From a virus, in UHGV virus genome UHGV-0026213: a DNA stretch of 64,000 nt. One strand, written 5' to 3'. The notes below the pieces were generated by a model. That model did not search any database. It had not been told where the DNA came from and was given only the letters and a program-made list of their open reading frames with translations. Below, piece after piece: positions 25,100 through 25,597 of this stretch (position 1 is its first letter; each line of letters begins with the position of its first letter). Position numbers and translations under genes: made by a program.

Positions 25100-25597
25100 A
25101 TGTTAACGGTACGTAAAGAATCTGAAATTGGTAACGATCTTTTTAATGCGCCCGAAGACTATAAAGTCGTTACCATTAACTGCGTAGGAGCGATGGGACG
25201 TGGCATTGCACTCGCGTGTCGTGAACGCTACCCCAACCTTTATCAAGATTACCGTAAGCGGTGTCGTGAAGACGAAATTAAGATTGGAAGCGTTTACGTT
25301 TACTCTGACGAAAAGTGTATCTTGCTCCCCACGAAAACACATTGGCGTTTAAAATCCCAGGTTTCTTATGTTACTGCGGGCATTACCGCACTAGCGGATT
25401 GTGCTGAGGATCTGGATACCAGCGTTGCTATCCCTCCATTGGGAATGGCAAACGGGTGGTTAGATTCCTGGGAAAGACAAGAAATCTTTTTGTGGCTTTA
25501 CAAAAAACTTGAACCGAGGAGGCAACGCTACACGTTATACTTACCTGTTAAGTTGTATCAAGAAGCAGAGTCATTAATTCCAAACTCTTTTAAATAG
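25100..25597 (+). CDS. Stand-alone macrodomain, DarG/TARG1-like (ADP-ribose hydrolase)
   Basis: VVTINCVGAMGRGIALACRERYPNLYQDY ... LLPTKTHWRLKS ... SVAIPPLGMANGWLDSW is colinear with the DarG macrodomain as recalled (VNTVNCVGVMGKGIALQFK..YP ... FPTKKHWR ... SVAVPPLGVGNGGLDW). The start is uncertain: ATG 25100 fits the domain length, and the track gives TTG 25037. Confidence 0.7.
   Translation: MLTVRKESEIGNDLFNAPEDYKVVTINCVGAMGRGIALACRERYPNLYQDYRKRCREDEIKIGSVYVYSDEKCILLPTKTHWRLKSQVSYVTAGITALADCAEDLDTSVAIPPLGMANGWLDSWERQEIFLWLYKKLEPRRQRYTLYLPVKLYQEAESLIPNSFK

Follow-up and report, generated by a model that had tools for sequence, protein, structure and literature searches.

A stand-alone DarG2-type macrodomain, probably an AdfM-type antitoxin, in a metagenomic relative of the jumbo phage Asesino

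The virus genome UHGV-0026213, analyzed here as a single stretch of 64,000 nucleotides (hereafter the window), carries a gene for a single DarG2-type macrodomain, and the protein is most likely an AdfM-type orphan antitoxin that would hydrolyze the thymine ADP-ribose made by DarT2 in single-stranded phage DNA and so neutralize DarTG2. The family was already published in 2026 under the name AdfM (anti-DarT factor macro), comprising PhiKZ gp104, PhiPA3 gp108, Goslar gp83 and Asesino gp217 (Morgan et al., Cell Rep 2026, PMC13309987), and the window protein is one more member of it.

The positions of the gene, its motifs and its recognizable neighbors are collected in Table 1. The earlier note had given a product of 166 amino acids, a figure reached only when the stop codon is counted; the protein has 165. 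Three observations support the start codon: homologue alignments begin at residues 1–7, the same start was chosen in the gene calls of 8 independent contigs, and residues 2–6 form the confidently predicted first beta-strand. A longer ORF starting from a TTG at 25037 was considered and rejected, as the conservation among homologues begins at the ATG and the gene calls of the 8 contigs concur. A 34-aa ORF at 25012–25116 (+ strand), present in the gene calls of the 8 related contigs shown, extends 17 nt into the macrodomain gene, and no obvious Shine-Dalgarno sequence was seen before the ATG; this arrangement may reflect translational coupling, or the small ORF may be spurious. Promoter and terminator scans around the macrodomain gene returned nothing above shuffle expectation (sigma-70 models are not expected to fit chimallivirus RNA polymerases), and neither Rfam nor a tRNA scan gave a hit anywhere in the window.

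Table 1. Coordinates of the macrodomain gene, its conserved motifs and neighboring genes within the 64,000-nt window
Feature	Position	Strand	Basis or remark
adfM-like gene, 165-aa stand-alone DarG2-type macrodomain	25100..25597	+	CDS including stop (ATG at 25100, TAA finishing at 25597); ORF, Pfam/NCBIfam/PADLOC matches, 62% identity to Asesino gp217, AF2 fold
Asn27 codon AAC	25178..25180	+	aligns with TaqDarG N22 and PhiKZ AdfM N23 (active-site Asn)
Loop 1 VGAMGRG, aa 29–35, glycine-rich, ADP-ribose-binding	25184..25204	+	clade alignment
PTKTHWR, aa 77–83	25328..25348	+	Lys79 codon 25334–25336; alignment with TaqDarG
Loop 2 PPLGMANGWL, aa 112–121, diphosphate/distal-ribose-binding	25433..25462	+	alignment; Trp120 typical of the clade
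SbcC/SMC-like ATPase	20891..23470		neighbor, upstream side
GNAT acetyltransferase	23960..24439		neighbor, upstream side
SLT transglycosylase	25671..26396		downstream of the macrodomain gene

The family assignment was consistent across independent profile collections. Pfam returned Macro (4.9e-6, above the gathering score), the sole NCBIfam match was the antitoxin_DarG equivalog NF048014 (E = 1.5e-35, profile positions 7–155 of 338; 123.1 bits against a curated cut-off of 250 that applies to full-length proteins), and DarG was likewise the sole match in PADLOC (E = 1.4e-36), while in PHROGs the protein falls in phrog_335, labelled 'phosphatase'. On the DarG model the window protein scores 123 bits, compared with 137.8 for PhiKZ AdfM and 117.4 for Asesino AdfM; its score is thus comparable to that of the proven PhiKZ enzyme, which we count as support for the AdfM reading. 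MacroD/YmdB (PRK00431-type) and ADP-ribose-binding families were not matched in NCBIfam, whereas some bona fide DarG proteins do give weak secondary matches of this kind. A sequence search of the PDB ranked the M. tuberculosis DarG macrodomain first (5m3i, E = 2.6e-25), followed by T. aquaticus DarG (5m31/5m3e, E = 2.6e-20) and the Thermosipho DarTG fusion (7omu), whereas an Appr-1''-pase (6lft) reached E = 0.018 only. The likeness to DarG pointed out in the earlier note is far beyond chance in the PADLOC, NCBIfam and PDB sequence matches.

The same picture was obtained at the level of the fold. An AlphaFold2 model built from 29 homologues (mean pLDDT 93.1, pTM 0.89) has the predicted macrodomain order of helices and mixed beta-sheet, and Foldseek against the PDB placed 5m3e, 5m3i and 5m31 on top (TM 0.77–0.86, rmsd about 2 Å), with 7omu, SCO6735 (5e3b) and TARG1 (4j5q/r/s) next, and alphavirus and other macrodomains thereafter. 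The earlier note had proposed a structure prediction as a check and held that closest matches among MacroD/YmdB-type enzymes would speak against its reading; the nearest folds proved to be DarG macrodomains, with TARG1 further down, and not MacroD/YmdB. Together with the NCBIfam result, this bears out the assignment to the stand-alone DarG/TARG1 class, and the window protein is confirmed as a single DarG2-type macrodomain.

The active site was examined in an alignment of the window protein, Asesino gp217, PhiKZ gp104 and the DarG cores taken from the PDB alignments, and conservation was counted in a clade alignment (n = 29) and in 148 family representatives (the best 148 of 5101 relatives). 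The three motif blocks named in the earlier note all occur in the protein, namely NCVGAMGRGIALACRERYP (aa 27–45), PTKTHWR (aa 77–83) and SVAIPPLGMANGWLDSW (aa 108–124). The equivalent of Asn27 is Asn in 28 of 29 clade members and in all 148 family representatives. The lysine placed by the earlier note at the catalytic position of TARG1 and DarG is indeed there: K79 aligns with TaqDarG K80 and PhiKZ AdfM K78 and is the equivalent of TARG1 K84, it is invariant together with T78 in 29/29 clade members, and Lys occupies the position in 146/148 family representatives. These are the positions that matter most in the characterized enzymes, as K80A inactivates TaqDarG and N22A is its next most damaging mutation (Jankevicius et al., PMC5179494), and N23A lowers the activity of PhiKZ AdfM (PMC13309987). 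Trp82 corresponds to TaqDarG W83, for which stacking on the modified thymine was proposed (PMC5179494). In loop 1, V29, G30, M32, G33 and G35 do not vary within the clade alignment and are common to DarG and PhiKZ AdfM. Eleven residues of TaqDarG hydrogen-bond ADP-ribose, including G117, G119, N120 and G121 of loop 2 (PMC5179494), and 8 of these 11 positions are identical in the window protein; as to replacements, V31 is conservatively changed to Ile, Q34 to Ala, and at N8 and G119 the residues are those of the active PhiKZ enzyme (D13 and A117).

The gene is an orphan in both senses that the earlier note had described. The 165 residues comprise the macrodomain alone, the DarG profile being matched only within its positions 7–155 of 338, so that no DarT-binding C-terminal domain is present; in TaqDarG the macrodomain by itself suffices as antitoxin (PMC5179494). 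As for a nearby toxin gene, no DarT/DUF4433 was found by Pfam in the 10 flanking ORFs and 10 further ORFs (nine of these ten being ORFs that have no Asesino counterpart), and when the P. aeruginosa 505 DarT2 was run with phmmer against every ORF ≥ 50 aa of the window, the best E-value was 1.5, the single-sequence query being of limited sensitivity because DarT2 proteins are only 20–26% identical to each other. Likewise, the Asesino stretch gp188–gp289 holds no DarT annotation. Small conserved phage ORFs are also found among the neighbors of the macrodomain gene, and the order SbcC/SMC, GNAT, macro, SLT transglycosylase is common to the window and Asesino, which makes the gene the positional orthologue of a named AdfM, gp217. 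An identical macro protein was found on at least 23 contigs, and the neighborhood was unchanged in 8/8 contigs shown.

The relatives of the surrounding genome were recovered at the protein level only, as megablast of window positions 24000–27000 against 50,697 phage records gave no DNA match. By tblastn, the window protein was matched in 264 phage records, and most of the genera listed there (Pseudomonas, Erwinia, Escherichia, Salmonella, Serratia, Vibrio, Klebsiella) are hosts of jumbo phages; the best matches were to SPN3US-like phages of Salmonella, at 64.8%, and to Erwinia phage Asesino, at 61.6%. Pairwise, the identity is 62% over 159 aa to Asesino gp217 (YP_009290835.1, E = 6e-74) and 40% to PhiKZ gp104 (E = 4e-30). 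The whole 64-kb window is collinear with Asesino 150,043–216,089, that is gp188–gp261, and the genes in common include virion proteins, SbcC/SMC gp207 (70%), UvsX gp238 (80%), thymidylate synthase, the giant tail fiber gp261 and the msRNAP beta fragment (Asesino gp240, 85.5% identity to the window ORF). Window positions 15100–35597 are 100% identical over 20.5 kb to positions 96698–117195 of a metagenome contig of 224,967 bp (ena:ERZ27287186:k141_659670). Variants at 98–99% identity were seen in several other metagenomes, and assemblies of Salmonella enterica and E. coli contain annotated close relatives of the macro protein (88–89% identity) and of the chimallin. The source pointed to is an uncultivated enterobacterial jumbo phage of ~225 kb that was repeatedly co-sequenced with its hosts.

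[quoted passage not shown] Chimallin and PicA were absent from the 64-kb window; since gp039 lies outside the syntenic stretch, ChmA is not expected within it. ChmA homologues with 58% identity to that of Asesino were found on similar contigs of 221–225 kb, none of them placed on the window's own contig. Synteny with Asesino makes the window phage a very likely chimallivirus, and the nuclear context of the enzyme rests on this same synteny. A genome of the nucleus-forming jumbo phage type bears on where the enzyme would act, a context that was absent from the earlier note.

Two further ORFs of the window deserve mention in their own right. The thymidylate synthase ORF at 50541–52076 (+ strand, 511 aa) corresponds to Asesino ThyA (339 aa) with an in-frame insert of ~200 aa placed after about residue 83 (…IWDSW). 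The insert matches families of HNH homing endonucleases, Rfam gave no group I intron, and the element may be intein-like or else a mobile HNH insertion that keeps the frame. In addition, a 153-aa ORF at 17477–17938 (+ strand) carries PF27224 (YfjT) in the precomputed Pfam annotation of the identical contig, while our own Pfam scan gave it no match at E ≤ 0.01.

What such a protein does has been worked out in PhiKZ. PhiKZ gp104 strips ADP-ribose from a DarT2-modified TNTC oligonucleotide, with N23A impaired, and PhiKZ AdfM fully rescues E. coli from DarT2 toxicity (PMC13309987). Deletion of AdfM costs 3–6 logs of titer on DarTG2-expressing P. aeruginosa, and in its absence the phage DNA becomes ADP-ribosylated and genome packaging fails; the enzyme is imported into the phage nucleus, where the balance of DarT2 and AdfM sets the level of protection (PMC13309987). 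DarTG2 has thus been countered experimentally by the AdfM of PhiKZ (in vitro and in vivo) and of PhiPA3 (in vivo), while Asesino gp217 is listed as an AdfM and was seen in the phage nucleus, localization being all that is published for it (PMC13309987). PicA recognizes surface residues of its cognate folded cargo (PMC13309987). The idea of the earlier note that an orphan DarG-like macrodomain would erase the DarT mark from phage DNA has therefore been demonstrated for the chimallivirus family, on PhiKZ AdfM (PMC13309987), and for the window protein the activity on T-ADPr DNA, the nuclear localization and the role in vivo are what we infer from these homologues.

By analogy with them, the following course would be expected. 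Host DarT2 would ADP-ribosylate thymine in single-stranded phage DNA, the phage macrodomain would bind the ADP-ribose through loops 1 and 2, and the bond between ribose and thymine would be cleaved with K79 and N27 as the key catalytic residues, which would restore unmodified DNA and allow replication and packaging to go on. Given its kinship with chimalliviruses, the phage probably imports the enzyme into its proteinaceous nucleus, where the enzyme would keep the replicating DNA free of adducts. A DarT2 of enterobacteria, with a TTT/TCT motif, is known from EPEC (PMC7003065), and DarT2 target motifs are abundant in the window DNA; both points add to the plausibility of this course, as does the self-sufficiency of the TaqDarG macrodomain. 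Avoidance of the motifs was considered as the main route of escape and rejected, as there is no depletion in the window DNA: TNTC occurs 2214 times against 2157 expected (z = +1.3), and the z-scores of TCT and TTT are +4.0 and –2.8, respectively.

The spread of the family was surveyed by a search of 1.84 billion representatives, which returned 5101 relatives of the window protein; among the best 148 of these, 38 stand alone, and 82 exceed 280 aa in length, being DarG-like or other fusions. When ranked by phmmer in one common list from the window protein, PhiKZ gp104 took place 108 of 153, with many cluster representatives of bacterial DarG-like proteins above it (several of them with two domains), and the reverse search from PhiKZ gp104 placed the window protein at rank 77, such similarity ranks not being equivalent to a phylogeny. 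Many DarG-like macrodomains of bacteria are thus at least as close to the window protein as PhiKZ AdfM is, and strict orthology with the latter is accordingly not established; the ranks give a hint that the phage AdfM proteins may not be monophyletic. A second difference lies in loop 2, which reads GMANGWL in the window protein as opposed to GCANGGL in PhiKZ AdfM and GxGNGGL in DarG. The tryptophan (Trp120) occurs in 26/29 clade members, whereas among the 148 family representatives 11 have Trp and 106 have Gly at this position.

Two observations on the wider distribution were made along the way. DarG-type stand-alone macrodomains are also encoded by non-jumbo phages that form no nucleus (~76-kb E. 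coli and Shigella phages, a Sashavirus, Proteus phiP4-3 and actinophages), and the AdfM strategy is probably not confined to chimalliviruses. In several records of SPFM-series Salmonella phages the annotation divides the macrodomain region into two short hypothetical proteins, with database products of 123–152 aa that match only about 12% of the query; the split is probably a frameshift or an annotation artefact of those records.

The ranks and the loop 2 residue could be read in another way, namely that the Asesino/SPN3US-like AdfM clade stems from a separate capture of a bacterial DarG2-type macrodomain and that Trp120 might tune it to a different substrate, for which the TTT/TCT adducts of enterobacterial DarT2, another ADP-ribosylated base or ADPr-RNA might be candidates. 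We consider this unlikely; if true, chimalliviruses would have gained DNA de-ADP-ribosylases repeatedly, with their specificities diverging.

Very unlikely, in our judgement, is a DarG-derived enzyme that has been retargeted to other nucleic-acid ADP-ribosylation, for example the ADPr-RNA of other ART defence toxins, or to another modified base, with Trp120 as the sign of an altered specificity. The enrichment of this residue in the clade relative to the family and the equal distance of the clade from PhiKZ AdfM and bacterial DarG would fit such a shift, and reversible RNA ADP-ribosylation systems with their erasers are now reported (PMC11833690, PMC13036486). However, apart from the replacements at Q34 and V31 and the PhiKZ-like residues at N8 and G119, the ADP-ribose- and thymine-contacting positions match DarG, Asesino gp217 enters a nucleus that contains DNA (PMC13309987), and Trp recurs in 11 other clusters of the family, which marks it as a tolerated variant rather than a unique innovation.

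It is also highly improbable that the protein is a general-purpose macrodomain hydrolase of non-DNA substrates (protein mono-ADP-ribose, O-acetyl-ADP-ribose or ADP-ribose-1''-phosphate), which might undo the marks set on proteins by ADP-ribosyltransferases of the host or phage. Annotations of homologues as 'Appr-1-p processing protein', 'phosphatase' or 'protein-ADP-ribosylation protein' lean in this direction, as do the activity of the structural neighbor TARG1 on protein Glu/Asp-ADPr and the frequency of ADP-ribosyltransferases (> 40%) and macro domains (56%) among jumbo phages (PMC9503650). On the other side stand the NCBIfam result, the wide gap between the Appr-1''-pase and DarG in the PDB search, the retention of the putative thymine-stacking Trp (W82), and the statement that the macrodomains of bacterial DarG2, the nearest relatives, act exclusively on DNA ADPr (Morgan et al., PMC13309987).

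Macrodomains can also serve as readers, and phages use sponges against nucleotide signals. Nevertheless, a non-catalytic reader or sponge for ADPr-derived immune signals or ADP-ribosylated targets appears far-fetched: the clade and the family alike keep the catalytic Lys and Asn with few or no exceptions, as one would expect of an enzyme, and the homologous PhiKZ protein is catalytic (PMC13309987).

With the window protein taken as an AdfM-type eraser, its meaning is largely that of the family: the phage nucleus is a leaky shield, and chimalliviruses also need an enzyme that erases ADP-ribosylation from their DNA, as already published. To this the window instance adds a conserved neighborhood in an uncultivated lineage, a loop 2 Trp variant characteristic of the clade and the hint of non-monophyly. 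A possible use would be the choice of AdfM variants for studies of specificity, or the engineering of therapeutic jumbo phages against DarTG2-carrying Enterobacteriaceae.

Among known systems, TARG1 (C6orf130) and SCO6735 share with the window protein the macrodomain class and the position of the catalytic lysine, TARG1 superposing with a TM of about 0.7–0.8, but their sequence identity to it is only 19–22% and neither of them serves a phage in counter-defence; the main substrate of TARG1 is protein Glu/Asp-ADPr, and SCO6735 is reported to cleave thymidine-linked ADPr as well (PMC9411070). AdfN, the orphan DarG1-like NADAR protein by which T4-like phages escape DarTG1 (PMC11825919), is similar in concept, being a phage-borne orphan antitoxin enzyme that takes DarT-made ADP-ribose off phage DNA, but its NADAR fold is unrelated to the macro fold and it removes the guanine adducts of DarT1, not the thymine adducts of DarT2. 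The remark in the earlier note that characterized escapes from DarTG involve other mechanisms is outdated, given that both AdfN (DarTG1, PMC11825919) and AdfM (DarTG2, PMC13309987) are enzymatic. HMM, sequence and predicted fold all put DarG2 (T. aquaticus, M. tuberculosis, EPEC; NF048014) in one macrodomain subfamily with the window protein, and the equivalents of N22, K80 and W83 are present in the window protein; unlike DarG2, however, the latter has no C-terminal DarT-binding domain, stays below the NF048014 cut-off and is encoded by a phage, away from any darT, instead of in a host toxin-antitoxin module. From the AdfM proteins described so far the window protein differs in coming from an uncultivated metagenomic phage and being known here by sequence, in its loop 2 Trp, and in being ~40% identical to the characterized PhiKZ enzyme without the two being mutual nearest relatives. 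It agrees with them in being a stand-alone DarG2-type macrodomain (family ~160–166 aa) that has the Asn and Lys of the active site, in the collinearity of its jumbo phage with one proven to form a nucleus, and in lying in the same neighborhood as gp217.
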